64,000 nucleotides of DNA from an uncultured Gemmatimonadales bacterium (GTDB lineage Bacteria > Gemmatimonadota > Gemmatimonadetes > Gemmatimonadales > GWC2-71-9): positions 128,001-192,000 of the forward strand of contig CAVYSW010000010.1 in the NCBI GenBank assembly GCA_963771275.1, given 5' to 3'. Positions 5,571 through 52,549 of this stretch are shown here, one piece after another. Each line of letters opens with the position of its first letter. Position 1 is the first letter of the stretch. The notes beneath the pieces are model-generated. The model saw only the letters and a list, made by a program, of their open reading frames with translations. It did no database searches and was not told the DNA's origin. Position numbers and translations under genes: made by a program.

Positions 5571-5662
5571 GAGGCGATAACCTAGCGCCGGAGGGCATGA
5601 AGTCCAGTCTGGCGTGCCGTCGGGCTGGCGCGTGCCCCCGAGGGCTGACATGTTTCCGCGGC

Positions 5663-7140
5663 ATGCCGTCGCGCGCTGAAGTCCATCTCGATGCGGGGGT
5701 TGCGCCCCGGCCCGACTCGCCCGGCGCTCCGCTCCCCGATCAGCTGCTGCCGATCGCGCTGGTCGGCGACTTCAGCGGCCGCACGCATCGTGGCCCGGTG
5801 GTCGTCGGGCCGCCCCTGGAGGAGCGGCGGCCCGTGCGGGTCGATCGCGACACGCTGGACCAGGGGCTTGCGCACTTCGCGCCGGAGGTCCCGCTCGCGC
5901 TTGGGGGCACGGCGGCGGACGCGGCCGTGCGATTCTCGGCGCTCGACGATTTCCACCCGGATGCGCTGCTCGCGCGGTTACCGGTGTTTGCCATGCTGCG
6001 GTCCATGCGCGAGCCCGCGGGCGAGCGCGGTGGGGGGGGACGGCGGACCCCGGCGCGCCCGTCGCGCCTCCGAGCCCGCTCGACCTGGTGCATCAGGGTG
6101 ACCTGCTGAGCCGTGCGGTCGCCGCGACGCTGGGGGAGTCGGGAGGGGGTGCCGACCCGCTGCAGGCGTTCGTGCGGCGGCTGGTGGCGCCGCATCTCGT
6201 GCGGGAGGCCGGGCCCGCGGAGCGCGTCTGGCGAGCGCAGGTGGACGCCACCGCCGGCGCGTTGCTGCGCGAGATCCTCCACGGTCCCGGCATCCGCGCG
6301 CTCGAAGCGCTGTGGCGCGCGGTCGACTTCCTGGTGCGCCGGGTCGACAGTGATGCCGAGCCCCCGTTCTATCTCGTGGACGTGAGCCAGCCGGAAGCCG
6401 CCGCGGACTTGGCGGCGGCCGGCCGTGTCGAGGACACGGCGCTGGTCCGGCTGCTCGGCGGTCCCCCGGGCGGGCGCTGGGGCGCGATCGTCAGCGACTT
6501 CTCGTTTGGCGCGGACCCGAACGACGCGATCCTGGCCGGGCGTCTGGCGGCGCTCGCCCGATCGGCCGGCGCGCCGTGGCTGGCCGCGGCAAGCCCGGCG
6601 CTCGCGGGCTGCCCGTCGCTGGTGGATCATCCCGATCCCGCCGCATGGGACCGGGCGGTTCCCGCGGCATGGGGCATGCTCCGCCGGCAACGGGAGGCGG
6701 CCTGGCTGGGGCTGGCGCTGCCGCGGTTCCTGCTGCGCCTGCCGTACGGTCCTGACACCGAGCCGTGCGCGCTACGCGACTGGCGGGAGACGACCGAGCC
6801 GCCGCGGCATGATCAGTATCTCTGGGGCAACCCCGCCTTCGCCTGTGCCTTGCTCCTGGCAGGGCGTCTCGGGCCGGGTGGAACCTGGCGTACCCCTGGT
6901 GGGGTACTCGACATCGGAGATCTCCCGCTGCACCTCAGCGCGGCGGATGGAGAAACCCGTGCGCAGCCCTGCGCCGAGGTGCTGCTGTCGGAGCGGGCGG
7001 CGCACCGGCTGCTCGACGCTGGCCTCATGCCACTCGTGTCGCTCAAGGACCGCGATGCCGTACGGCTGCTGCGGTTCCAGTCGTTTGCGGAGCCCGCGGC
7101 GCCGCTTGCCGGACCGTGGGGTGGTGCCGGGCGCGCTTGA
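5663..7140 (+). pseudogene. TssB-TssC-like sheath fusion protein, split by a frameshift at a G8 tract (6032-6039)
   Basis: 5' ORF is TssB-like (IALVGDFSGR...FSALDDFHPDALL..LPVF). 3' ORF is TssC-like (ALEALWRAVDFL, LALPRFLLRLPYG, YLWGNPAF, AEVLLSER...GLMPL). One extra G joins them through the linker GGTADPGAPVAPPSPLDL. Confidence 0.75.
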
Positions 7141-9271: not shown

Positions 9272-9763
9272 ATGGCGTTCGATGCGTTCCTCAAGCTCAA
9301 GGGTGTCGAAGGCGAGGCCACGAAGGCGGGCTTCGAGAAGCAGATCCCGGTGCTGTCGTTCAGCTTCGGCGCGCACAACCCGAGCAGCCCGGTGGGGAGC
9401 GGGGCCGGCGCGGGCAAGGTCTCGATCAGCGGCTTCACGATCTCGAAGTGGACCGACAAGTCGAGCGCCCAGCTGTTCCAGACGTGCTGCACCGGCAAGC
9501 ACTTCCCGGACGCCAAGCTCACGCTGCTGAAGGCGGGCGGCGACAAGCCGGTGGAGTACCTCACGTACGAGTTCAAGGAGCTGTTCGTCAACGACATCAA
9601 CTGGTCGGGCTCCAGCGGTGGCGACGACGTGCCGATGGAGACCGTGAGCTTCTCGTTCGCGTCCGTGCAGGTGACGTACACCGAGCAGAAGGCCGACGGG
9701 ACGCCGGGCACGCCGCAGATCGGCGGCTGGGATCTCAAGGCGGGCAAAGCCCTTGGGAAGTGA
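9272..9763 (+). CDS. hcp: T6SS tube protein Hcp/TssD
   Basis: MAFDAFLKL.GVEGE, FTISKWTDKSSAQL, GKHF, ETVSFSF..VQVTYTEQ, GWDLK; strong RBS AAGGAGG. Confidence 0.96.
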   Translation: MAFDAFLKLKGVEGEATKAGFEKQIPVLSFSFGAHNPSSPVGSGAGAGKVSISGFTISKWTDKSSAQLFQTCCTGKHFPDAKLTLLKAGGDKPVEYLTYEFKELFVNDINWSGSSGGDDVPMETVSFSFASVQVTYTEQKADGTPGTPQIGGWDLKAGKALGK

Positions 9764-10463
9764 GGCGCTGTTTCGCGAGGGGAAGCTGGACGAGGCGGTC
9801 GAGGCGCTCGGGAAGGAGCTGCAGCGGGACCCGACCGACCTCCGGAAGCGTACGTTCTTGTTCGAGTTGCTCTGCTTCGCCGGCAAGTACGATCGCGCGG
9901 AGAAGCACCTCGATGTGATCGCGGGGGCCAGTCCCGACGCGGCGCTGGGCGCGCTGGTGTACCGCAGCGCGCTCCACGCCGAGCGGATCCGGCAGGAAAT
10001 GTTCCGGACCGGGGAATACCCGCACCGTAGCGCCCGCGCGGTGTCGGGGACGCTGAACGGGGAACCGTTCAGCTCCCTCACCGACGCGGACCCGCGGATC
10101 GGAGCCCGCCTCGAGGTGTTCGCCGCCGGGGAGTACCAGTGGCTGCCCCTCGAGCACGTCGCATCGGTCCGGCTGGACCCGCCCAAGCGTCTGCGCGATC
10201 TCCTCTGGACGCCCGCGATCCTGCGGACGGGACCGGCGTTCAAGGGGGTCGAGCTCGGGGAAGTGCTGCTCCCCGTTCTGGCGCCGGGCTCGTGGGAGGA
10301 CGTCGACGACGCGGTCCGCCTCGGTCACGTCACGGGGTGGCTCGCCGACGGCGCGCACGAGGTGCCCGTCGGACAGAAGCTGCTGCTGGTCGACGGCGAG
10401 GAATTCCCCATCCTCGAGCTGCGGGAGCTCGAGATCGCTGCAGGGGCCGCCACTTCCACCTGA
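9753..10463 (+). CDS. tagJ: T6SS accessory TagJ/ImpE (SciE) family protein
   Basis: N-terminal TPR-like G.LDEAV..L...DP.D...R.FLFELLCFAG; LTDADPRIG..LEVF..GEYQWLP, PKRLRDLLW, GQKLL. Confidence 0.9.
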   Translation: MGSEALFREGKLDEAVEALGKELQRDPTDLRKRTFLFELLCFAGKYDRAEKHLDVIAGASPDAALGALVYRSALHAERIRQEMFRTGEYPHRSARAVSGTLNGEPFSSLTDADPRIGARLEVFAAGEYQWLPLEHVASVRLDPPKRLRDLLWTPAILRTGPAFKGVELGEVLLPVLAPGSWEDVDDAVRLGHVTGWLADGAHEVPVGQKLLLVDGEEFPILELRELEIAAGAATST

Positions 10464-24183: not shown

Positions 24184-24351
24184 ACCAAGACCTCCGCTAA
24201 GCCGTTGCGGGTTCGCAACATCCCGGACCAAGCCGCCTACCCAATCTACCGGGCGCCCTGCATCGCGCCAGAGTGAAACCTCGGCGGACTCGACGCGGGG
24301 CCCGATTCTTTCTATCCTATGGGGTCTGAAGGCGACCGAGGGCACCAAGCG

Positions 24352-27300
24352 ATGAGCGTCAGCATTACCTGCACGCGGTGTGGCCAGCCGATGAGCGCGA
24401 GCGACCGGTTCTGCGCCAACTGCGGCACCGGGAACCCGATGGTCGGTCGACAGGCCGATTCCAGTGGCTCCGGGTCGGTGTGGGATGCCGTGCAGCAGTC
24501 GCTGCGGGTGGCGACCCGCGGGGAGTTCGACATCGCCGGTGAGTTGGGCCACGGCGGGATGGCCGCCGTCTATCTGGCGCACGACATCGGGCTCGACAAG
24601 AAGGTCGCCATCAAGGTCATGGCGCCCGCCCTCATGGCCGACCCCAGCATGATCGGCCGGTTCCAGGACGAAGCGCGCACCGTCGCGAAGCTCGAGCACC
24701 CCAACATCGTGACGGTGCACGCCGCCCGGCAGGCGGGGGGTCTGTACTTCTTCGTGATGAAGTACGTCGTCGGGCGTGACCTCGACTCCATCCTCGAGCA
24801 CGGGCCCCTGCCCCTGGCGGTGGTCCAGGCCGTGATCTATCAGGTGGCGACGGCGCTCCAGTACGCGCACGGCCGCAATGTGATCCACCGCGACATCAAG
24901 CCCAGCAACGTCATGGTCGACCTCGAGGGCAACGCGGTGGTGATGGATTTCGGCATCGCGAAGCTGCGGGGGGCGCGCGGCCATACCATGGTCGGCGCGG
25001 CGATCGGCACGCCGCCCTACATGAGTCCCGAGCAGTGCCTCGGCAAGGAAGTGAGTCCCGCGTCCGACCAGTACTCGCTCGGGATGGTCACCTACCATCT
25101 GCTCACCGGCCGGCCGCCGTTCAGCGGCGAGCCGATCCCGGTGATGCGGCAGCAGATCGAGGTCGACCCGCCGCCGATCGAGCACCTGGCGGAGGGCCCG
25201 TGCCCGCCGAAGGTCCGCGACGGGGTCCGCCGCATGCTGGCCAAGGCCCCGGAGGATCGCTGGGGGTCGGTGGTGGAGGCGGCTCGCGCGCTTGGAGGGC
25301 ACCCGGTCGCGGTCGACGACCCGTTGCGCGACGAGATCGCGCGCCTGTCTCAAAGCGGCGGGTTCATTCCGCCGACGCAGATCTTCACGACGCCGCTCAG
25401 CCCCTCGCCGCAAGTCGGCTGGACACCCGGGCCGGTCGCGCCCACCGTGCCGATCACGCCGACCCCCTCGGCGCCCGTGACGCCGCCGGCCTCGGTGCCC
25501 TTCGCGGCGCCGCCATCGGCTCCCGTGACCCCGCCGTCAGCCGCACCGCTCACGCCGCCGACGGTCCCATACACGGCGCCCCCGGTGATCCAGCCATCGG
25601 CACCGCTCACGCCGCCGCCGTCGGGCCCGCTCACGCCGGCACCCGTGCCACCCTTCACGCCGCCGCCCATGGCGCCGGCCACGGTGCCGTACACGCCGTC
25701 GATGGCGGGTCCGGTGAGCACCCCCCCGAGTGGTATCGGCGAGCTGCCCCCAATGGCGCCGCCCGTGGTGCCGGCCACCGCGCTCGTCCCACCGGACGCG
25801 CTGCAACCCGCCGGGCTCGCCGCGGCGCCCGCCACGGCGCCGATGCCTGCGGCGGCGCCGAGTCGCCCACGCACGGGCCCCGTTGCCGCGGCCGCGCTCA
25901 GGCCTCAGCCCAAGCCGCCCTGGCTGCTGATCGGCGGCGCGGCCGTGGCGGTCGCGGCCGTCGCGGTCGTCGTCATGCTCGCCTTGCGGCAGCCCGCCAC
26001 GAGTGACGTGACGCTCGCGGTGGCGCCGCCCGAGTTGAATCTTGGCGCGGGGCAGGAAGGGACATTGTCGATCGACGGCGTGCCTGGTGGGACGCCGGTC
26101 GCGTGGCGCTCGAGCGACGATGCCGTGGCCACGGTCGATGCGGACGGACGGGTCCGGGCCGTGCGGGAGGGCCGGGCGCTCATCATCGCGTCTGCCGCCG
26201 ATCGCGCCGATACGGCGGTCGTGACGGTCGCGCCCGGAGCCGTGGCCGAGCCGCCCCGGACGGCGCGGCTCGAGGTTCGCCCGGCCGACACGCAGGTCCA
26301 GGTCGGCGACGCGGTCACGCTGCGGGTGGAGGCGTTCGATCAGGGCAACCGCAGCATGACGGCACCCCAGGTCCGCTGGCGGTCGTCCAACGAGCGGGCC
26401 GTGGCGGTGACGCAGGCGGGGACCGTGACGGGGCGGGCGGTTGGGTCGGCCACCGTGACCGCCGCGGCGGGCGGCGTGGAAGCCAGCGCCATCATCCGCG
26501 TCCTCGCCGTCGCCCGGCCCGCGGACACCACCGGGCCGCCGCCGCCCCCACGGCGCGTGGCGGTCGTCGCCGTCACCCCACCGCGCATCGAGCTGGACGT
26601 CGGCCAGACCGCCGCGGTCATCGCGGAGGCGCGGGACGCGCAGGGCAGGCCGTTCGACCGACCGATTGCGTTCCGATCGGACAACGCAGGCGTGGCGAAC
26701 GTGTCGGAGCGCGGCGAGGTGCGGGCCGTGGCACCGGGAAACGCGGTGATCGTGGCGGCGAGCGACGGGATCGAGGGCCGCGCCATGGTCCAGGTGCGCG
26801 CGCCGGCACCACCGCCACCGCGGGACACCGCCGTGGCTCCGGCACCCGCGCGAACGGTCACGTTCGCCGGCATCGCGGCGGGGAGCGCGCATACGTGCGC
26901 GGTGGCGTCGGGGGATGAGGCCATCTGGTGCTGGGGCGGAAACGACCGAGGACAGATTCAGCCCGGCTCCGGACAGGGAGCGCGCGTGCTCCAGCCGGTC
27001 GCCCTGGCGGGGACGGCGGCCGAGCTCGCGGCGGGCGCCGAGCACACATGCGCGCTGGCCGACGGCCAGGTGACGTGTTGGGGGCGCAACACCGAAGGGC
27101 AGTTGGGCACGAGCGACCTCAAGGCCACCCGATACACGGTTCCCGGCCTGCGCTTCGAGGAGATCAGTGCCGGTCCGGCGCACACCTGCGGCCTCACCAC
27201 CGCCGGCCAGGTCTACTGCTGGGGCAAGAACGACATGGGGCAGCTGGGTGACGGGTCCAGCAGCCGGCGTGCAAAGCCAACGCCGATCGCGGCGAGCGCC

Positions 27301-27900
27301 AAGTTCACGGCCGTTACCGCCGGCGGGTCGCATACCTGCGCGCTGCGCGCGGACGGCGCCGCGGTCTGCTGGGGCAGCAACTGGAGCGGGCAGATCGGCA
27401 GCGGCATGATCCAGTCATTGCCGTCGCCGACGGGCGTGGGAGGCGGCGTGAAGTTCCGCGAGCTGGTGGCGGGTGGCGACCACACCTGTGGTATCTCGAC
27501 TGCCGGCAAGCTGTTCTGCTGGGGCAAGAACTCGGCGGGCCAGGTAGGTGACGGTTCCAAGAGCCAGCGCAGCGCCCCCCAGGAGGTGCAATCCAAGGAG
27601 AGCTTCACGCTGGTGGTCGCCGGCAAGGAGCACACCTGCGCGCTGGCGTCCGGCGGCCGGGCATTCTGCTGGGGACGCGGCCGGGAAGGCGAGATCGGCG
27701 ACGGCACCACCCAGGATCGCACGACGCCGACGGCGGTTCGCGGCAACGAAGCCTTCGCGTCGCTCGCTGCCGGCGACCAGCACACGTGCGGGGTTACGAA
27801 GGCGGGCGCGGTGCTGTGCTGGGGAGCGAACGCGGGCGGACAGCTCGGGTCGGGTGGCAACCAAGCGGCCGCGGCGCCCGCTCCGGTCAAGCTCCGCTGA
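24352..27900 (+). CDS. Hanks-type Ser/Thr kinase with Zn ribbon, Pro/Thr-rich linker, TM, three Big_2 Ig-like domains and RCC1-repeat propeller
   Basis: CxxC..CxxC N-terminus; LGHGGMAAVY, VAIK, HRDIKPSN, DFG, GTPPYMSPE; WRSS...VATV repeats; seven AG..HTC....CWG.N..GQ repeats. Confidence 0.92.
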   Translation: MSVSITCTRCGQPMSASDRFCANCGTGNPMVGRQADSSGSGSVWDAVQQSLRVATRGEFDIAGELGHGGMAAVYLAHDIGLDKKVAIKVMAPALMADPSMIGRFQDEARTVAKLEHPNIVTVHAARQAGGLYFFVMKYVVGRDLDSILEHGPLPLAVVQAVIYQVATALQYAHGRNVIHRDIKPSNVMVDLEGNAVVMDFGIAKLRGARGHTMVGAAIGTPPYMSPEQCLGKEVSPASDQYSLGMVTYHLLTGRPPFSGEPIPVMRQQIEVDPPPIEHLAEGPCPPKVRDGVRRMLAKAPEDRWGSVVEAARALGGHPVAVDDPLRDEIARLSQSGGFIPPTQIFTTPLSPSPQVGWTPGPVAPTVPITPTPSAPVTPPASVPFAAPPSAPVTPPSAAPLTPPTVPYTAPPVIQPSAPLTPPPSGPLTPAPVPPFTPPPMAPATVPYTPSMAGPVSTPPSGIGELPPMAPPVVPATALVPPDALQPAGLAAAPATAPMPAAAPSRPRTGPVAAAALRPQPKPPWLLIGGAAVAVAAVAVVVMLALRQPATSDVTLAVAPPELNLGAGQEGTLSIDGVPGGTPVAWRSSDDAVATVDADGRVRAVREGRALIIASAADRADTAVVTVAPGAVAEPPRTARLEVRPADTQVQVGDAVTLRVEAFDQGNRSMTAPQVRWRSSNERAVAVTQAGTVTGRAVGSATVTAAAGGVEASAIIRVLAVARPADTTGPPPPPRRVAVVAVTPPRIELDVGQTAAVIAEARDAQGRPFDRPIAFRSDNAGVANVSERGEVRAVAPGNAVIVAASDGIEGRAMVQVRAPAPPPPRDTAVAPAPARTVTFAGIAAGSAHTCAVASGDEAIWCWGGNDRGQIQPGSGQGARVLQPVALAGTAAELAAGAEHTCALADGQVTCWGRNTEGQLGTSDLKATRYTVPGLRFEEISAGPAHTCGLTTAGQVYCWGKNDMGQLGDGSSSRRAKPTPIAASAKFTAVTAGGSHTCALRADGAAVCWGSNWSGQIGSGMIQSLPSPTGVGGGVKFRELVAGGDHTCGISTAGKLFCWGKNSAGQVGDGSKSQRSAPQEVQSKESFTLVVAGKEHTCALASGGRAFCWGRGREGEIGDGTTQDRTTPTAVRGNEAFASLAAGDQHTCGVTKAGAVLCWGANAGGQLGSGGNQAAAAPAPVKLR

Positions 27901-35356: not shown

Positions 35357-36895
35357 GTGCCCTCCACCAGTCCGTTGACGCTCGGTGACCGCGATGACTT
35401 CGCCCGGGTGGCCGACCACCTGCTCGCCGCCACGTACGACGCCCAGACCGTGTGCGGTCGCTTGAGCGTGCCCGATCTGTTCGCGGTGGACGACCTGCCG
35501 CGGGAGGCGATTGCGCTCCCGCCCGCCGCGGACGATCCGCTCGCGTTCCTCGTTCGCACGTTCCTGCTGCTGGAGCCGGCGACCGAGGCCGCGCTCAACG
35601 CTCGGCTCGATGCCGCGACCCGGAGAGCGTTCGAGCGGTTGGGCCTGTTGGTCAGGGATCGAGATCGCGAGAGCTGGTCGGCCGCCGTGCTGCTCTACCC
35701 GGTCGGCCAATTCCACGTCGTGTCGGACCGCCATCGCGGCCCCGACGGGCTGCCGTTCACACCGCCGGCGGATGCCGTATTCCCGGCGCTCTTCCCCGGC
35801 ACGATGCGGTTTCTGCGCCTCTTGCCGGAGGGAGCCTATGACCAGGCGCTCGATCTCGGCGCGGGCACGGGAATCGGCGCCCTCGCGCTGAGCCGGCGCG
35901 TGCGCCGGGCGGTCGCCGCCGACCTCACGGAGCGCGCGACGCACTTCGCGCGGTTCAACCGCCTGCTCAACGCGTGCGACAACGTGGAAGCGGTGACGGG
36001 CGATCTCTACGCACCCGTCGCGGGCCGGACGTTCGACTGCGTCGTGGCCCATCCGCCGTACGTCCCGTCGCCGGACGATGCGTTCGTGTTCCGGGATGGG
36101 GGCCCGACCGGTGAGCGCCTCGTGCGGCGGATGATCGCGGAGCTGCCGGCGGCGCTGCGGCCGGGCGGCGTGTTCTGTGCCGTCTGCGCCGCGTGGGACA
36201 CCGCCGATGGTCCGCTCGAGCAGCGCGTGCGCGGCTGGCTGGGGGCGCACGCGGAGGAGTTCGACCTGCTCGTGGGCGTCGAGACCGAGCTCGACCCCGC
36301 CGACCTTGCGGAGCGACTTGCCACGTCGGCAGACGGAGGAGACCGGGTCGGTGTGGCGCGCTGGGAAGCGCGGTTCCGCGAGGCGGGGCTCAGCGGCTAC
36401 GTGTACGGCGTCCTGGCGTTGGCACGCAGGAGGGGACTTGGGGCGCCGGCGACGCTGCGGACGTGGCTCGGCGCCACCACCCGGGGCTCCGATCTCGAGC
36501 ACACGCTCGCCGGACTCGCGGAACGGGCGACGCAGCTCGCGGCCGGAACCCGGACGCAGGCGCTGGACAAGCTGCGTCCGCGCCCCGCAGCGGCGCTGGG
36601 CGTCCATGTGGAGTATGCCGCCCCGGCGGGGGCGTCGGTGCCGGCCGAGGTCGTTCTGGCGACCCAGGAGCCGTTCCGCAGCCGCACGCGGATCGATCCG
36701 TGGATGTGGGAGCTCGTGTCCGCCTTCGACGGCGCGCATACACCCACGGAGGTCCTGACCGCGCTCCGGGCGCGGCGCGGCGTGCCCGAGGGCTTCACGA
36801 AGCACGACCTCCACCGCTTGGTCGAGCTGTTGCTCGAGCGCGGCTACGTGGAGGGGGCCGACCCACGAAGCGCCGCTCCCCGGCGGTGCGCGTGA
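35357..36895 (+). CDS. Class I SAM-dependent methyltransferase (HemK/MTS-like, HPPY) with C-terminal PqqD/RRE-like winged-helix domain
   Basis: ORF 35258..36895, start uncertain (GTG 35357 chosen). LDLGAGTG, AADL, GDLY.PV, HPPYV, FRDGG..GE; C-terminal LVSAFDG..T..EVL...LVELLLERGYVE. Confidence 0.8.
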   Translation: MPSTSPLTLGDRDDFARVADHLLAATYDAQTVCGRLSVPDLFAVDDLPREAIALPPAADDPLAFLVRTFLLLEPATEAALNARLDAATRRAFERLGLLVRDRDRESWSAAVLLYPVGQFHVVSDRHRGPDGLPFTPPADAVFPALFPGTMRFLRLLPEGAYDQALDLGAGTGIGALALSRRVRRAVAADLTERATHFARFNRLLNACDNVEAVTGDLYAPVAGRTFDCVVAHPPYVPSPDDAFVFRDGGPTGERLVRRMIAELPAALRPGGVFCAVCAAWDTADGPLEQRVRGWLGAHAEEFDLLVGVETELDPADLAERLATSADGGDRVGVARWEARFREAGLSGYVYGVLALARRRGLGAPATLRTWLGATTRGSDLEHTLAGLAERATQLAAGTRTQALDKLRPRPAAALGVHVEYAAPAGASVPAEVVLATQEPFRSRTRIDPWMWELVSAFDGAHTPTEVLTALRARRGVPEGFTKHDLHRLVELLLERGYVEGADPRSAAPRRCA

Positions 36896-37003
36896 GCCTG
36901 CAGCGATTCCCCGGTCCGGCGCGTAGATTCACTGCGCCCGAGGTCCGGCCGCCGGCCGGGCCCCAGCCCGTCCCTTTCATTCCAGTTGGTGAGGCAACCC
37001 GCC

Positions 37004-40000
37004 ATGTCATCCTGTCGATCGTTCGTTGCCACGTGCAGTCTCGCGGCGGCCGTCCTGCTCGCGACCGCCCTCACGCCGAACGCCGCGGTGGCCCAGCGTC
37101 CCGGCAGGGCCCAGGGTGGACCGCCCGGGGCCCAGGCCGGCGCCCGCGGCGACTCCACGCGCGGTCCGCGCGATCCCCTCGGTGCCGCGCTCGGCGGCCT
37201 GCGTCTGCGCTCGATCGGTCCGGCCGTCGTGTCGGGGCGGATCGGCGACATCGCCGTCGACCCCACCGATCACAAGATCTGGTATGTAGGGGTGGCGTCC
37301 GGCGGCCTGTGGAAGACGACCAACGCCGGCACGACGTTCTCGCCGATCTTCGACGGCGAAGGCTCGTATTCCATCGGGACGGTCGTGGTCGACCCGAAGA
37401 ACCCCAACGTCGTCTGGGTGGGCACGGGCGAGAACAATGTGCAGCGCTCGGTGTCGTATGGCGACGGCGTCTACAAGTCGATCGACGGCGGCCGCAGCTG
37501 GCGCAACGTGGGCCTCGGCACGTCCGAGCACATCGGGAAGATCCTCGTCGATCCCCGCAACTCCGACGTGGTGTACGTCGCGGCGCAGGGGCCGCTGTTC
37601 AACAGCGGCGGCGACCGCGGGCTCTACAAGACCACCGACGGTGGCAAGACCTGGAACCGGATCCTCGAGGGCGGTGAGTGGGCGGGGGTGACGGACGTCG
37701 TGATGGATCCGCGGAACCCGGACGTGCTGATCGCGGCGGTCTGGCAGCGCGCCCGCCGGCAGTGGGGGTACATCGCGGGCGGCCCGCAGTCCAGCCTGCA
37801 GCGCTCCACCGACGGTGGCGTCACGTGGACCCGGTCGCAGAGCGGTCTCCCCAGCGAAACGCTCGGTCGCATCGGGCTCGCGATCGCGCCGGCTGACCCG
37901 GACGTGGTCTACGCCATCGTCGAAGCGGCCAACGACCGCGGCGGCTTCTACCGCTCCCGCGACAACGGCGTGAGCTGGGAGCGGATGAGCGACCAGACCA
38001 CCATCGGCCTGTACTACCAGGAGCTGTTCGCCGACCCCGTCAAGGTGGATCGCGTGTACCTGGTGGACGTGCGCAACATGGTGACCGAGGACGGCGGGCG
38101 GACCTTCACGCCCGTGGGCGAGCGCAACAAGCACGTCGACAACCACGTGATCTGGATCGACCCGACCGACACGGACCACCTGATCATCGGCTGCGACGGC
38201 GGCCTGTACCAGACGTTCGACCGCGGCCAGACGTACGACTTCTTCCAGAATCTCCCGCTCGGGCAGTTCTACCGGGTGGATACCGACAACGCGCTGCCGT
38301 TCTACCGGGTGTACGGCGGCACCCAGGACAACAGCTCGGTGGGCGGCCCGTCCCGCACCCGCACCCGCGGCGGCGCCCCGGGCGGCGACTGGTTCCTCAC
38401 CCAGGGCGGCGACGGGTTCCAGTCGCGCGCCGACCCGGCCGATCCCAACACGGTGTACGCCGAGTCGCAGCACGGCGTGCTGTCGCGGTTCAACCTCGCC
38501 ACGGGCGAGGAAGTGAGCATCGTGCCGGAAGCCGAGCCCGGCGAGCCCGGCTTGCGGTGGCACTGGGACACGCCGCTCATCATCAGCCCGTTCTCCCATA
38601 CCCGACTCTACTTCGCGGCGCAGCGCCTGTTCCGGAGCGACGACCGCGGCAACACCTGGCGGGTCGTGAGTCCCGATCTCACCAGGCAGATCGATCGCAA
38701 CAAGCTCAAGCTGATGGGGCAAGTGTGGGGGGTGGACGCCGTCGCGAAGAACACGTCGACGTCGCTCTACGGGACCATCGTCACCATCGCCGAATCACCG
38801 GCCAAGGAAGGCCTGCTGTGGGTCGGCACGGACGACGGCCTGGTGCAGGTGAGCGAGGACGGCGGGGCGCACTGGCGGGCGATCAGCTCTGTGCCGGGCG
38901 TGCCGGACACGACGTTCATCTCGCGCGTGACGCCGTCGATGCACGACGTGAACACCGTCTATGTGGCGTTCGACAACCACAAGGCCGGCGACTACAAGCC
39001 GTACATCGCGAAGAGCACGGACCTTGGCCGCACGTGGAAGCTGATCACCGGTGGCCTGCCCGAGCGCGGCTCGGTGTACGTCGTGATCGAGGACCACAAG
39101 GACCTCAACCTGCTGTTCGCCGGCACCGAGTTCGGGCTGTTCGTCTCCCGGAACGGCGGCGAGCGATGGACGCGGCTGCGCGCCGGGCTACCCACCATCA
39201 TGGTCCGCGACCTCACCATCCAGAAGCGCGAGGACGATTTGGTGGTCGCCACATTCGGCCGCGGGTTCTACATCCTGGACGACCTGTCGTCCCTGCGGGC
39301 GCTTACACCCCAGACGCTGGCCTCCGCCGGCGGCCTGTTGCCTGTGAAGCGCACGCCGATGTACGTCGAGTCCTCCCCGGCCCCGAATTGGCAGGGCGCG
39401 CGCTTCTATGCCGGCAGCAACCCCCCGTCCGGCGCCGTCTTCACCTACTACCTGAAGGACGCGGTCCGCACGCGAAAAGAGCAGCGCCAGCAGGCCGAGC
39501 GTGCTGCCGAACGGCGGGGCGAGGACGTGTTCTACCCGCCGTGGGACTCGCTCAAGGCCGAAGACCGTGAGGAGGCCCCCACAGTGATTCTCACGGTCAC
39601 GGACCCTGAAGGGAGGGTGGTGCGACGCGTCACCGGCCCGACATCGGCCGGAACGCACCGGGTGACGTGGGACCTGCGCTATCCGGCGGCCACGCCGGTC
39701 ACGGCCCCACGCGCTGGCGGCGGTGGCTTCGGTGGTGGGGGCGGCTTCGGGTTTGGGGGCGGTGCGGGGCCGCTGGTCGTGCCCGCCACCTATACCGTCT
39801 CGCTCGCCAAGCGGGTGGACGGCGTCGAGAGCCCGGTCGGTCAGCCGCAGAAGTTCGAGGTCTATCTACTCGACCAGACTACCACACCGCGCTCGCCCGC
39901 CGTGCTGGCGTTTCAGGAGAAGTCGGCGGCGCTCCAGCGCGCGGTGCTCGGCGCCAACGCCGCAGCGGGCGAGGCGATGAGCCGCGTCCAACTGCTCAAG

Positions 40001-40366
40001 CGGGCGCTCGAGCAGACGCCGGCCGCGCCCGCACAGCTGTCCGCCGACCTCCTGGCCGTTCAGGACAGCGTGCAGGCGATCCAGGACGCGCTGAACGGCG
40101 ATCCGACGGCCGCCCGGCGGCAGGAATCCACACCGCCGTCGCTGACCGATCGCCTGCGGGCCTTCACCGGCGGCGCGTGGTCGGGGAGTCTGTCGGATGT
40201 CACGGCCACGCAGCAGCGGCAGTACGACGTGGTCGCCGCCGAGTTCGGGGCGATCCTCGATCGGCTGCGCAAGGTCGTCGAGGTTGATCTCCAGCGCGTC
40301 GAGCATGCTGCCGAGGCGGCTGGTGCCCCGTGGACCAGCGGGCGGATTCCGACCTGGAAGCCCTAG
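37004..40366 (+). CDS. Secreted BNR/Asp-box (VPS10/sortilin-like) beta-propeller protein, often annotated glycosyl hydrolase
   Basis: Signal peptide; RSIGPA..SGRI, repeated S.DGG.TW boxes, YGGTQDN, VATFGRGFYILDD; C-terminal helical domain. Confidence 0.88.
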   Translation: MSSCRSFVATCSLAAAVLLATALTPNAAVAQRPGRAQGGPPGAQAGARGDSTRGPRDPLGAALGGLRLRSIGPAVVSGRIGDIAVDPTDHKIWYVGVASGGLWKTTNAGTTFSPIFDGEGSYSIGTVVVDPKNPNVVWVGTGENNVQRSVSYGDGVYKSIDGGRSWRNVGLGTSEHIGKILVDPRNSDVVYVAAQGPLFNSGGDRGLYKTTDGGKTWNRILEGGEWAGVTDVVMDPRNPDVLIAAVWQRARRQWGYIAGGPQSSLQRSTDGGVTWTRSQSGLPSETLGRIGLAIAPADPDVVYAIVEAANDRGGFYRSRDNGVSWERMSDQTTIGLYYQELFADPVKVDRVYLVDVRNMVTEDGGRTFTPVGERNKHVDNHVIWIDPTDTDHLIIGCDGGLYQTFDRGQTYDFFQNLPLGQFYRVDTDNALPFYRVYGGTQDNSSVGGPSRTRTRGGAPGGDWFLTQGGDGFQSRADPADPNTVYAESQHGVLSRFNLATGEEVSIVPEAEPGEPGLRWHWDTPLIISPFSHTRLYFAAQRLFRSDDRGNTWRVVSPDLTRQIDRNKLKLMGQVWGVDAVAKNTSTSLYGTIVTIAESPAKEGLLWVGTDDGLVQVSEDGGAHWRAISSVPGVPDTTFISRVTPSMHDVNTVYVAFDNHKAGDYKPYIAKSTDLGRTWKLITGGLPERGSVYVVIEDHKDLNLLFAGTEFGLFVSRNGGERWTRLRAGLPTIMVRDLTIQKREDDLVVATFGRGFYILDDLSSLRALTPQTLASAGGLLPVKRTPMYVESSPAPNWQGARFYAGSNPPSGAVFTYYLKDAVRTRKEQRQQAERAAERRGEDVFYPPWDSLKAEDREEAPTVILTVTDPEGRVVRRVTGPTSAGTHRVTWDLRYPAATPVTAPRAGGGGFGGGGGFGFGGGAGPLVVPATYTVSLAKRVDGVESPVGQPQKFEVYLLDQTTTPRSPAVLAFQEKSAALQRAVLGANAAAGEAMSRVQLLKRALEQTPAAPAQLSADLLAVQDSVQAIQDALNGDPTAARRQESTPPSLTDRLRAFTGGAWSGSLSDVTATQQRQYDVVAAEFGAILDRLRKVVEVDLQRVEHAAEAAGAPWTSGRIPTWKP

Positions 40367-40397
40367 CGCACCAGGGGTGTGTTCTGGCGCACGACTC

Positions 40398-40424
40398 ACG
40401 GCGGGCCCGACGCGGGCCCGCCGT
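40398..40424 (+). terminator. Hairpin downstream of the BNR protein gene
   Basis: ACGGCGGGCCCG-acg-CGGGCCCGCCGT. Confidence 0.55.
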
Positions 40425-40460
40425 TGTGGCGTGGGGGGCGGGGCTCCGAATCACGAGTCG

Positions 40461-40479
40461 TTTTCACGGGTTTTTCACG
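40461..40479 (+). promoter_or_regulatory. TTTTCACG direct repeat (11-nt period), possible regulator site
   Basis: ttttcacg-ggt-ttttcacg, about 45-60 nt upstream of the peptide gene. Confidence 0.35.
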
Positions 40480-40522
40480 CCCGCGGCGCACCTTGGGCCG
40501 ACCCAATCTGCGGAGGACCCCG

Positions 40523-40666
40523 GTGTCGCAGCGTATTTCCGTACAGCTCACCCAGCAGCAGAAGGCCCAGATCAAGCAGGCGACCGGCAAAGACGCCGAC
40601 GCGATCGAGCTCAGTGTCGAGGAGCTCGAGGAGCGAATTGCCCCGTCCAAGTTGATCCGGAGCTAA
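40523..40666 (+). CDS. 47-aa RiPP-precursor-like peptide (ELEERIAP motif)
   Basis: GGAGG RBS at 40512-40516, GTG start; MSQRISVQLTQQQKAQIKQATGKDADAIELSVEELEERIAPSKLIRS; flanked by hairpins. Confidence 0.75.
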   Translation: MSQRISVQLTQQQKAQIKQATGKDADAIELSVEELEERIAPSKLIRS

Positions 40667-40690
40667 GCGGTCGGTCCCAGCCCGGCCCGC

Positions 40691-40717
40691 GAGCGCCCGG
40701 CAGTCCGCCGGGCGCTC
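40691..40717 (+). terminator. Hairpin after the peptide gene
   Basis: GAGCGCCCGGC-agtcc-GCCGGGCGCTC. Confidence 0.6.
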
Positions 40718-40811
40718 GTGCGTTGTGGCCCCTGGTCTGGCGCCGTCCTGGTTTCGCGTGTATCTCACATCGGGGTCGCGTGCGGGGCAGTCACGGCAAC
40801 GGGAGGCACGC

Positions 40812-41072
40812 ATGCCGGAGAAGCTCGTCGGGGTGGTGACGCACTACTTCAATGGGCCCAGCGTCGCCGTCGTGAAGGTCACTGAGGGGGAGATCGCCCT
40901 CGGCGATGACGTCCGGTTCGCGGGGCATTCGAGCGCCTTCACGGAGCGGGTGACCTCCATGGAGGTCGAGCACCGCAAGGTCGAGCGAGCGGGTGCCGGG
41001 GAAGAGGTGGCGATCCAGGTCGTGTCCCGTGTGCGGCAGCACGATCAGGTGTTCAAGATCGTCCCGGAGTAG
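40812..41072 (+). CDS. Small translation-elongation-factor-like beta-barrel protein (EF-Tu domain II / U32 C-terminal-like)
   Basis: RBS GGGAGG; VGVVTHYF...VAVV, GD.V.F.G, V.SMEV....VE.A..GEEVAI.V..RVR.HD.VFK. Confidence 0.75.
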   Translation: MPEKLVGVVTHYFNGPSVAVVKVTEGEIALGDDVRFAGHSSAFTERVTSMEVEHRKVERAGAGEEVAIQVVSRVRQHDQVFKIVPE

Positions 41073-52215: not shown

Positions 52216-52351
52216 GCATCTGACCAGTAGTGTCCCGTGCCCTTCCGCCGCAAGTCGGGTGCCGAGGCTGCTTCATCTTTCCTTCCCGGCAAGTTCACCC
52301 CGGTTTCACGACGGGGCAGAGAACGTTCACAAGTCAGGGCCGGGAGCGCAC

Positions 52352-52549
52352 ATGGCGAGAGTTGGTGAGCTGGAGCCAACGGGAGCGGCGCCGTTCGACG
52401 AGGCGGACTGCGGGCATCATCTGCCGTGCCCGGACTGGATCGTCGAGCAGGAGGCCTGGCAGCCCGCGGGTGACCTGGAGGAGCCGGAGCTCGATCCACC
52501 GGCCCACCTGCACGATCTCTGGATCGCGCTCGGCCTGGGCGAGGAGTAG
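52352..52549 (+). CDS. Small acidic hypothetical protein (65 aa)
   Basis: GGGAG RBS then ATG; MARVGELEP...DCGHHLPCPDW...LWIALGLGEE. Confidence 0.45.
   Translation: MARVGELEPTGAAPFDEADCGHHLPCPDWIVEQEAWQPAGDLEEPELDPPAHLHDLWIALGLGEE

Follow-up and report, generated by a model that had tools for sequence, protein, structure and literature searches.

A methyltransferase gene and a small peptide gene lie on the same strand of a 64,000-nucleotide stretch of DNA from an uncultured Gemmatimonadales bacterium (contig CAVYSW010000010.1, positions 128,001–192,000; hereafter the window), the enzyme gene 3.6 kb upstream of the peptide gene, and the question raised by this arrangement is whether the enzyme modifies the peptide. 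An initial annotation had proposed that it does: the enzyme (35357–36895, + strand), whose C-terminal domain resembles the recognition elements (RREs) of pathways for peptides made on the ribosome and modified after translation (RiPPs), would bind the leader of the peptide (40523–40666, +), which ends in ELEERIAP, and methylate its short core. We found no support for an action of the enzyme on the peptide. Rather, the two are most likely unrelated neighbors, paired by a coincidence of position. The explanation that we favor, with fair confidence, is that two independent systems stand side by side: a satellite peptide precursor that is processed in trans, and a protein N-methyltransferase associated with the type VI secretion system (T6SS).

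The distribution of the two families carries this conclusion. Counts for the enzyme family are based on the best 80 among 283 GTDB loci confirmed as members, gathered with search patterns that favor the HPP subfamily, and host-genome counts on whole-genome searches of the first 50 hosts among those loci; the peptide was followed in 80 metagenome loci, only 18 of which reach at least 5 kb. Two phylum samples, the window's own phylum and Acidobacteriota, comprise 251 genomes each. Loci and genomes compared are labeled L and G, with G000 the source genome of the window and C9 and C3 two of its contigs. Profile and motif searches that recovered the known C9 and C3 peptide copies as positive controls found the peptide in 0/80 enzyme-family loci, and genes of the peptide's home cassette, described below, were found in none of the 80 either. 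The peptide occurs in 4/50 host genomes, three of the same genus as the source and one with a weak match at E 6e-7; distant leader types could escape the profile. In the same-genus genomes, enzyme and peptides sit on separate contigs, and the enzyme orthologues (60–61% identity) have other neighbors and no peptide alongside. Conversely, the enzyme appears in 1/80 metagenome peptide loci. Because this locus, L106, is syntenic with the window over a 14-kb block at 81–87% identity, we read its enzyme–peptide neighborhood as inheritance and not as a conserved pair. Taken family by family, peptide and methyltransferase thus showed no association in co-localization. Nor did clustering of small open reading frames (25–110 amino acids) bring out another precursor type in the enzyme loci; the sole recurrent items were PAAR and reading frames shadowing T6SS genes. 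Co-folding of the enzyme (residues 1–503) with the peptide scored 0.00 and the control complexes also remained unfolded, so this result bears neither way, and RNA reads over the locus (0, 0, 0 and 2 in four of 15 listed runs) are too few to constitute a test.

Between the two genes lies a secreted Sortilin-Vps10/BNR beta-propeller gene (36986–40366, +; E 6e-28), for which the initial annotation had suggested, with reservation, a role in peptide binding. A homologue is present in 0/91 enzyme loci and 1/99 peptide loci, and the source genome holds seven VPS10-type genes. We rejected the propeller as a member of either system and regard it as a bystander.

The enzyme is a predicted S-adenosylmethionine-dependent N-methyltransferase of 512 amino acids (538 from an upstream start), in which a DUF7059-like N-domain precedes a Rossmann core with an HPPY motif. 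Its description as a class I methyltransferase with HPPY and an RRE-like C-terminal domain was confirmed. Pfam recognizes the core (MTS, E 2.8e-12) and, below its cut-off, the N-domain (DUF7059, E 2e-4). The structure model, built on an alignment of 96 sequences, reached a mean predicted local distance difference test (pLDDT) score of 93; the histidine of the motif, H232, is invariant in 96/96 aligned relatives, and the window enzyme retains all motif residues. The closest named relatives, at 60–70% identity, are from Gemmatimonadales. The fold of an amine or amide N-methyltransferase, anticipated from the motif, is borne out by the two best structural matches, GenN (gentamicin 3''-N-methyltransferase, 5u18; Z 31.1, root-mean-square deviation (rmsd) 2.8, 308 residues aligned) and AerE (Z 30.7, rmsd 3.5, 349 aligned), with which the N-domain and Rossmann core superpose. 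Profile matches to GenN and to AerE and PoyE, the proteusin D-Asn side-chain N-methyltransferases (7rc2–7rc6), range from E 1e-17 to 1e-23. The differences lie in the active site and the surroundings. AerE requires Asn231 of its NPPF motif for catalysis and works without a leader, as stated in the available part of PMC9060474, whereas in the window family this asparagine is replaced by the invariant histidine of HPPY. The window enzyme also bears an additional winged-helix domain (about 105 amino acids) at its C terminus, and its family resides in a T6SS neighborhood instead of a biosynthetic cluster: proteusin precursor or epimerase genes were found neither among the window neighbors nor among the recurring family neighbors, large or small. 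HemK/PrmC shares the class I fold and the (N/H)PPY-type motif, with a structural Z of only 16; identity with it was rejected, as TIGR03534 scored 54.5 bits against a cut-off of 199.1.

The C-terminal domain (residues 398–503, encoded at 36548–36865, +) is where the initial proposal placed the contact with the leader. Folded alone, it forms three strands followed by three helices (pLDDT 91). Its matches to the RiPP proteins TigE (Z 9.4), TbiB1 (9.1), lasso B1 (9.0) and PqqD (8.0) bear out an RRE/PqqD-type fold, while all RRE-type Pfam matches fell below cut-off. As a sign of peptide binding, the domain did not hold. The winged helix is a feature of the enzyme family as a whole, with 82 matches among the searched loci, and is present in relatives whose genomes gave no peptide match; its best structural match is the non-RiPP protein Rv2067c (Z 10.7, rmsd 2.9, 88 aligned); NovN (Z 8.9) and Rickettsia PKMT2 (Z 7.8) follow among the others. 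Rv2067c is a protein lysine methyltransferase that, in the part of its description available to us, acts on H3K79. PKMT1 and PKMT2 methylate OmpB. The catalytic cores of Rv2067c, PKMT1 and PKMT2 differ from that of the window enzyme, which is of the AerE/HemK type (whole-chain template modeling scores 0.26–0.29). Judged from the models, the RRE-like fold is real but common to RiPP and non-RiPP enzymes, and such a fold together with a nearby small open reading frame is insufficient to call a RiPP.

What the enzyme does accompany is type VI secretion. The window itself holds a T6SS cluster within 1–22242, consisting on the − strand of tssM (which starts before the window), tssL and two tssK genes, and on the + strand of a TssBC-like gene, tssB, tssC, hcp, impE, tssA, tssE, tssF, tssG, a clpV-like gene, vgrG, a DUF6931 gene, a PAAR gene and a LysM gene; the clpV-like name derives from position and from likeness to the ClpV cluster of related loci and not from scanning the window copy for its family. 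The PAAR gene is 14.1 kb from the enzyme gene, and the cluster is the probable functional partner of the enzyme. Across the family, the recurring neighbors are TssB/C, Hcp, TssA, ImpE, TssE–G, TssK–M, ClpV, VgrG, PAAR and a methyltransferase resembling the protein lysine methyltransferases (PKMT-like; PF10119 plus PF21782), the last in 30/80 loci. With gene calls made by Pfam-checked queries, a T6SS gene lies in the flank of 53/80 enzyme loci (36/48 among loci of at least 15 kb), and TssC is no more than 3 kb from the enzyme in 34 of the 80. At genome level, TssC is present in 44/50 hosts, compared with 22/251 and 26/251 genomes in the two phylum samples; Hcp occurs in four of the six TssC-negative hosts, which brings TssC or Hcp to 48/50. 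Within the own phylum, 15/18 enzyme-positive genomes hold TssC, and two more (G139 and G065) have no TssC match and carry T6SS genes beside the enzyme. Exceptions to this confinement are G001/G272, G279, G164 and G345. In L043, Hcp is the gene immediately upstream of the enzyme, and in L029 (unpublished genome G287) 0.8 kb separates the two. The enzyme tree was a quick IQ-TREE run of 90 rows with SH-aLRT support only; L013 and two other loci, whose matches were short or split, were left out. It places the window enzyme within a set of T6SS-linked relatives: its nearest neighbor outside the genus is two genes from PAAR, and the nearest clade outside the genus (L030/L188, L025, L187) adjoins PAAR or VgrG genes.

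We propose that the enzyme would bind a T6SS protein through the winged-helix domain and methylate a nitrogen in one of that protein's side chains, and that in this lineage its gene may have drifted 14 kb from the cluster. Hcp is our leading, if tentative, candidate for the substrate. Export of the enzyme itself, or a target outside this list, comes next as a possibility that we hold in low confidence; a sheath or sheath-like TssBC protein on the one hand, and PAAR/VgrG or their cargo on the other, are each slightly less likely again. For the family as a whole, we regard as evenly balanced the wider proposal that this AerE-fold, RRE-bearing group methylates T6SS proteins, with Hcp foremost, in Acidobacteriota, Gemmatimonadota, Verrucomicrobiota and other lineages, where a PKMT-like enzyme often accompanies it. 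What the enzyme half of the locus still offers is a family of protein N-methyltransferases linked to the T6SS, together with a short list of testable substrates. If the proposal is true, it adds a methylation layer to the T6SS that we did not find described. Our literature search, which most subscription journals lay beyond so that absence from print is not established, returned neither the peptide system nor a T6SS-linked methyltransferase; on T6SS and methyltransferases, the available part of PMC10215855 deals with an unrelated O-methyltransferase fragment, and papers containing the string ELEERIAP concern, by title, only fungal or pollen taxonomy.

Turning to the peptide, we confirmed the 47-amino acid open reading frame, its own GGAGG ribosome-binding site (40512–40516, +, six bases 5' of a GTG start) and the two hairpins that bracket it, one of 12 bp between the VPS10 stop and the promoter repeats described below (40398–40424, +; z −4.7) and one of 14 bp 3' of the peptide stop (40688–40720, +; z −5.3 for 40667–40720). 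None of 200 shuffles gave hairpins equally good. Both lack a U tail; the terminator scan yielded 2 terminator-like sites where 1.8 were expected, with none at the peptide gene, and a sigma-70 promoter scan gave no signal above chance. The upstream hairpin, U tail or no, probably ends or stabilizes the preceding transcript.

The peptide is more than a chance reading frame because a protein search returned at least 746 relatives at E ≤ 0.1 (746 of 746 candidates). Its predicted anatomy of a leader followed by a core is likewise sustained. Among 120 listed family members, the nearly fixed leader ends in RIAP in 120/120 and conservation stops sharply at exactly that point, giving a 41-amino acid leader and the predicted core SKLIRS in the window; the cores that follow vary from 4 to 24 amino acids (median 8), with A, S or T at position +1 in 88/120, lysine at +2 in 79/120 and a lysine somewhere in 108/120. 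The source genome holds four further clear copies and one divergent copy. Three copies sit on C9, in a cassette between the gene for a BTAD-AAA regulator of the SARP (Streptomyces antibiotic regulatory protein) type and genes for GAF-HlyD, HlyD and M50-HlyD proteins (M50 match E 1.4e-6); a CxxCxxCC protein gene also belongs to it. The closest paralogue of the window peptide is the C9 copy with core SKLIRLQE (79% identity over 38 amino acids). A SARP, GAF-HlyD or M50 gene accompanies the peptide in 66/80 metagenome loci and in 16/18 of those reaching at least 5 kb.

Upstream of the window peptide, direct TCACG repeats at 40451, 40464 and 40475 (40450–40479, +) include a TTCACG pair with an 11-bp period. 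Repeats with this period are binding targets of SARP proteins, and the element is probably the site of a SARP-type activator. The source genome has 12 TTCAC-N6-TTCAC sites, six of which precede peptide-family reading frames and cover all five transcription units. More broadly, a repeat spaced at 11 or 22 bp on either strand lies upstream of 53/77 peptide units (those with enough upstream DNA) and in 6/68 downstream control stretches; before enzyme genes it was found in 0/77, and none precedes the window enzyme. Given its family membership, the C9 cassette and the shared repeat, the window peptide therefore looks like a C9 satellite with its own promoter, shielded by the upstream hairpin from the VPS10 gene. 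These findings are evidence that satellite precursor genes spread from the ELEERIAP system and retain the promoter repeat, which offers a route to the whole regulon and to all the cores of a genome.

Several observations weigh against this separation into two systems or against parts of it. At an 11-bp spacing, TTCAC pairs are not enriched genome-wide (12, with other spacings mostly at 1–18 and 71 at 14 bp), so the evidence for the repeat is its position. In the own phylum, the enzyme is found in 18 genomes, the peptide in 35 (one the unpublished G082) and both in 8; the peptide's presence in 8/18 enzyme-positive genomes exceeds background (p 0.001). In G164, a 97% complete genome of another genus, the peptide gene is convergent with the enzyme gene and overlaps its 3' end, and searches there recovered none of TssC, TssF, TssK and Hcp. 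The same four were not found in G001 (71% complete), which holds the enzyme together with peptides. All four same-genus enzymes that we saw are detached from T6SS genes, 27/80 enzyme loci lack a T6SS gene within the available flank, and in Acidobacteriota, with scoring limited to six candidates per genome, an enzyme match occurs in only 3/26 TssC-positive genomes. Since most Acidobacteriota T6SS genomes gave no enzyme match, the enzyme is not essential to the T6SS. G164, G001, the detached same-genus enzymes and the 27 loci leave room for a co-opted or a relic state.

A lineage-specific co-option, in which the enzyme left the T6SS, binds the ELEERIAP leader through its RRE-like domain and methylates the core with lysine +2 as the obvious site, would draw on the adjacency of the two genes in the window, in L106 and in G164, on the RRE-type fold, on the RiPP enzyme AerE among the top structural matches, on the lysine in most cores and on the distance of all four same-genus loci from T6SS genes. 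Six of the eight double-positive genomes belong to one genus, in which 15/17 genomes carry the peptide; outside that genus and G000, the peptide is present in 1/11 enzyme-positive genomes, and because the genomes compared are related, p values overstate significance. The adjacency in L106 is inherited with its block. The G164 enzyme falls in the other half of the tree, which led us to reject a peptide-linked enzyme clade shared by the window and G164; the G164 peptide has its own TTCAC repeat, and the contig ends 86 bases upstream of the enzyme gene. Such adjacency occurs in 1 of 10 other genomes holding both genes, with a rough chance of 0.06 (21 peptide loci, hand count). The peptide's absence from all 80 enzyme loci, its not being found in 46/50 host genomes, the promoter repeat that the peptide has and the enzyme lacks, and the leader-independence of AerE (in the available part of PMC9060474) also stand against co-option, which we consider most improbable. 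If true, it would be a case of an enzyme of a secretion system becoming a RiPP enzyme in Gemmatimonadales lineages (this genus and G164).

The same detachment could instead mean that the family is T6SS-linked while the window copy is a relic or has acquired a new, unrelated substrate, either another protein or a small amine as for GenN. The 14-kb gap, the same-genus orthologues without an adjoining T6SS gene and GenN standing level with AerE as best fold match fit this account, as do look-alike clusters of the same architecture that are common in Actinomycetota (from automatic names and few taxa records). Against it, a T6SS cluster is retained on the same contig, the motif residues are all in place and the nearest clade outside the genus adjoins PAAR or VgrG. 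We judge a relic or re-targeted enzyme improbable and retain the T6SS-associated protein N-methyltransferase as the better account.

For the peptide, the nearest described system is the daptides, whose MpaA precursors carry the leader motif ELExMEAP and which possess an RRE-fused intramembrane site-2 protease, as set out in the available part of 10.1101/2023.03.08.531785. ELExMEAP resembles ELEERIAP, and in both cases, going by that same part of the source, several short precursors lie near a site-2 protease. The invariant C-terminal threonine of daptides is absent: the window core ends in serine, and threonine is not among the eight commonest ends of the 120 cores, which are short and basic. 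In place of the daptide enzymes there are HlyD fusions and a SARP regulator; a daptide oxidative decarboxylase, aminotransferase or methyltransferase was not seen among the five C9 cassette genes scanned, a comparison made without a profile search of all loci, and the N-terminal part of the C9 M50-HlyD protein matched a winged-helix profile at only 54% probability. A second resemblance, to the pearlin scaffolds of the ammosamide/lymphostin type (NF033737), had been noted in the initial annotation. A weak leader likeness does appear in 4/30 aligned family members (best E 6e-4), whereas the window peptide itself has no NF033737 match; clustering of the peptide loci showed no shared neighbor of the size of a peptide aminoacyl-tRNA ligase (PEARL), for which no profile search was made. 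Neither part of the locus could be assigned to its closest known family, be it daptides, pearlins, proteusin methyltransferases or HemK.

In the mechanism that we propose for the satellite, the SARP protein of C9 would activate the gene through the TTCAC repeats. By analogy to the daptide leader and site-2 protease, the M50 protease would dock on the leader and cut after ERIAP, and SKLIRS, a hexapeptide with a probable role as a signal, would leave the cell by way of the HlyD proteins. One could also imagine that no exported product arises and that the peptide serves, through its leader alone, as a regulator or decoy: it would titrate the RRE of the protease or regulator while its tail drifts freely. 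The very short and variable cores would suit such a role, clustering of the 80 metagenome loci showed no tailoring enzyme common to them, and a sixth, divergent leader-like frame on C9 has the repeat but no ERIAP end. The sharp boundary after RIAP, the biased residues at +1 and +2, the several paralogues with differing cores and the adjacent protease and membrane-fusion proteins argue otherwise, and we hold the decoy role to be decidedly improbable beside a precursor processed in trans.

Some further members and neighbors of the peptide family deserve mention. The divergent C9 frame (G000:C9:49945–50206, −; locus L003, about 9950–10210) encodes 62 amino acids. Its N-terminus resembles the leader (profile E 6e-6), its tail is acidic and contains Trp and Cys, and three TTCAC repeats lie upstream; weak matches of similar score occur in G001, G003 and G004. 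A satellite on C3 (G000:C3:983690–983880, −; locus L001, about 9690–9880) has an 18-amino acid tail ending in PIPIPYPNTG, which presumably echoes a motif at the N-terminus of DUF4150 PAAR-like proteins. Two same-genus genomes have twin satellite peptides that adjoin DUF7790 proteins (L104:8434–10306 and L105:9083–11864), whose C-terminal end resembles what we take to be an amidinotransferase-type motif; on this likeness, the DUF7790 protein is a better candidate for a tailoring enzyme than the methyltransferase. Elsewhere in the window (52294–52549, +), a TTCAC pair and a ribosome-binding-site-like stretch precede a 65-amino acid, acidic, Cys/His/Trp-rich reading frame without a paralogue in the genome, a possible member of the peptide regulon. 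Directly 3' of the window peptide, a stand-alone 86-amino acid protein resembles EF-Tu domain 2 (40812–41072, +), an order kept in L106 and L107.

Around the enzyme, tandem or paired methyltransferase paralogues share one locus in L189:9232–12602, L050 and L055. In L043:8917–11482 (Symbiobacteriaceae) and L029:1–2857 (Chloroflexota), the enzyme stands with an orphan Hcp and an exported protein of the twin-arginine translocation (TAT) type, in genomes without a TssC match. Within the window T6SS cluster, the TssBC-like gene before tssB is a second sheath-like gene (5597–7140, +; VipB E 1e-40); because it matches a fused TssB-TssC relative in two separate frames, it is split or represents two genes. 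Genes of this type are the nearest T6SS neighbor of the enzyme in 21 loci. In 12 Blastocatellia-type T6SS loci (L039:8879–9685 among them), the TssBC-like gene and the enzyme are separated by a gene for a conserved 268-amino acid protein that has no Pfam match and was not found in the source genome. Just past the window cluster, a gene at 24319–27900 (+) encodes a Zn-ribbon Ser/Thr kinase joined in one protein with Ig and RCC1 repeats, a possible regulator of the T6SS.

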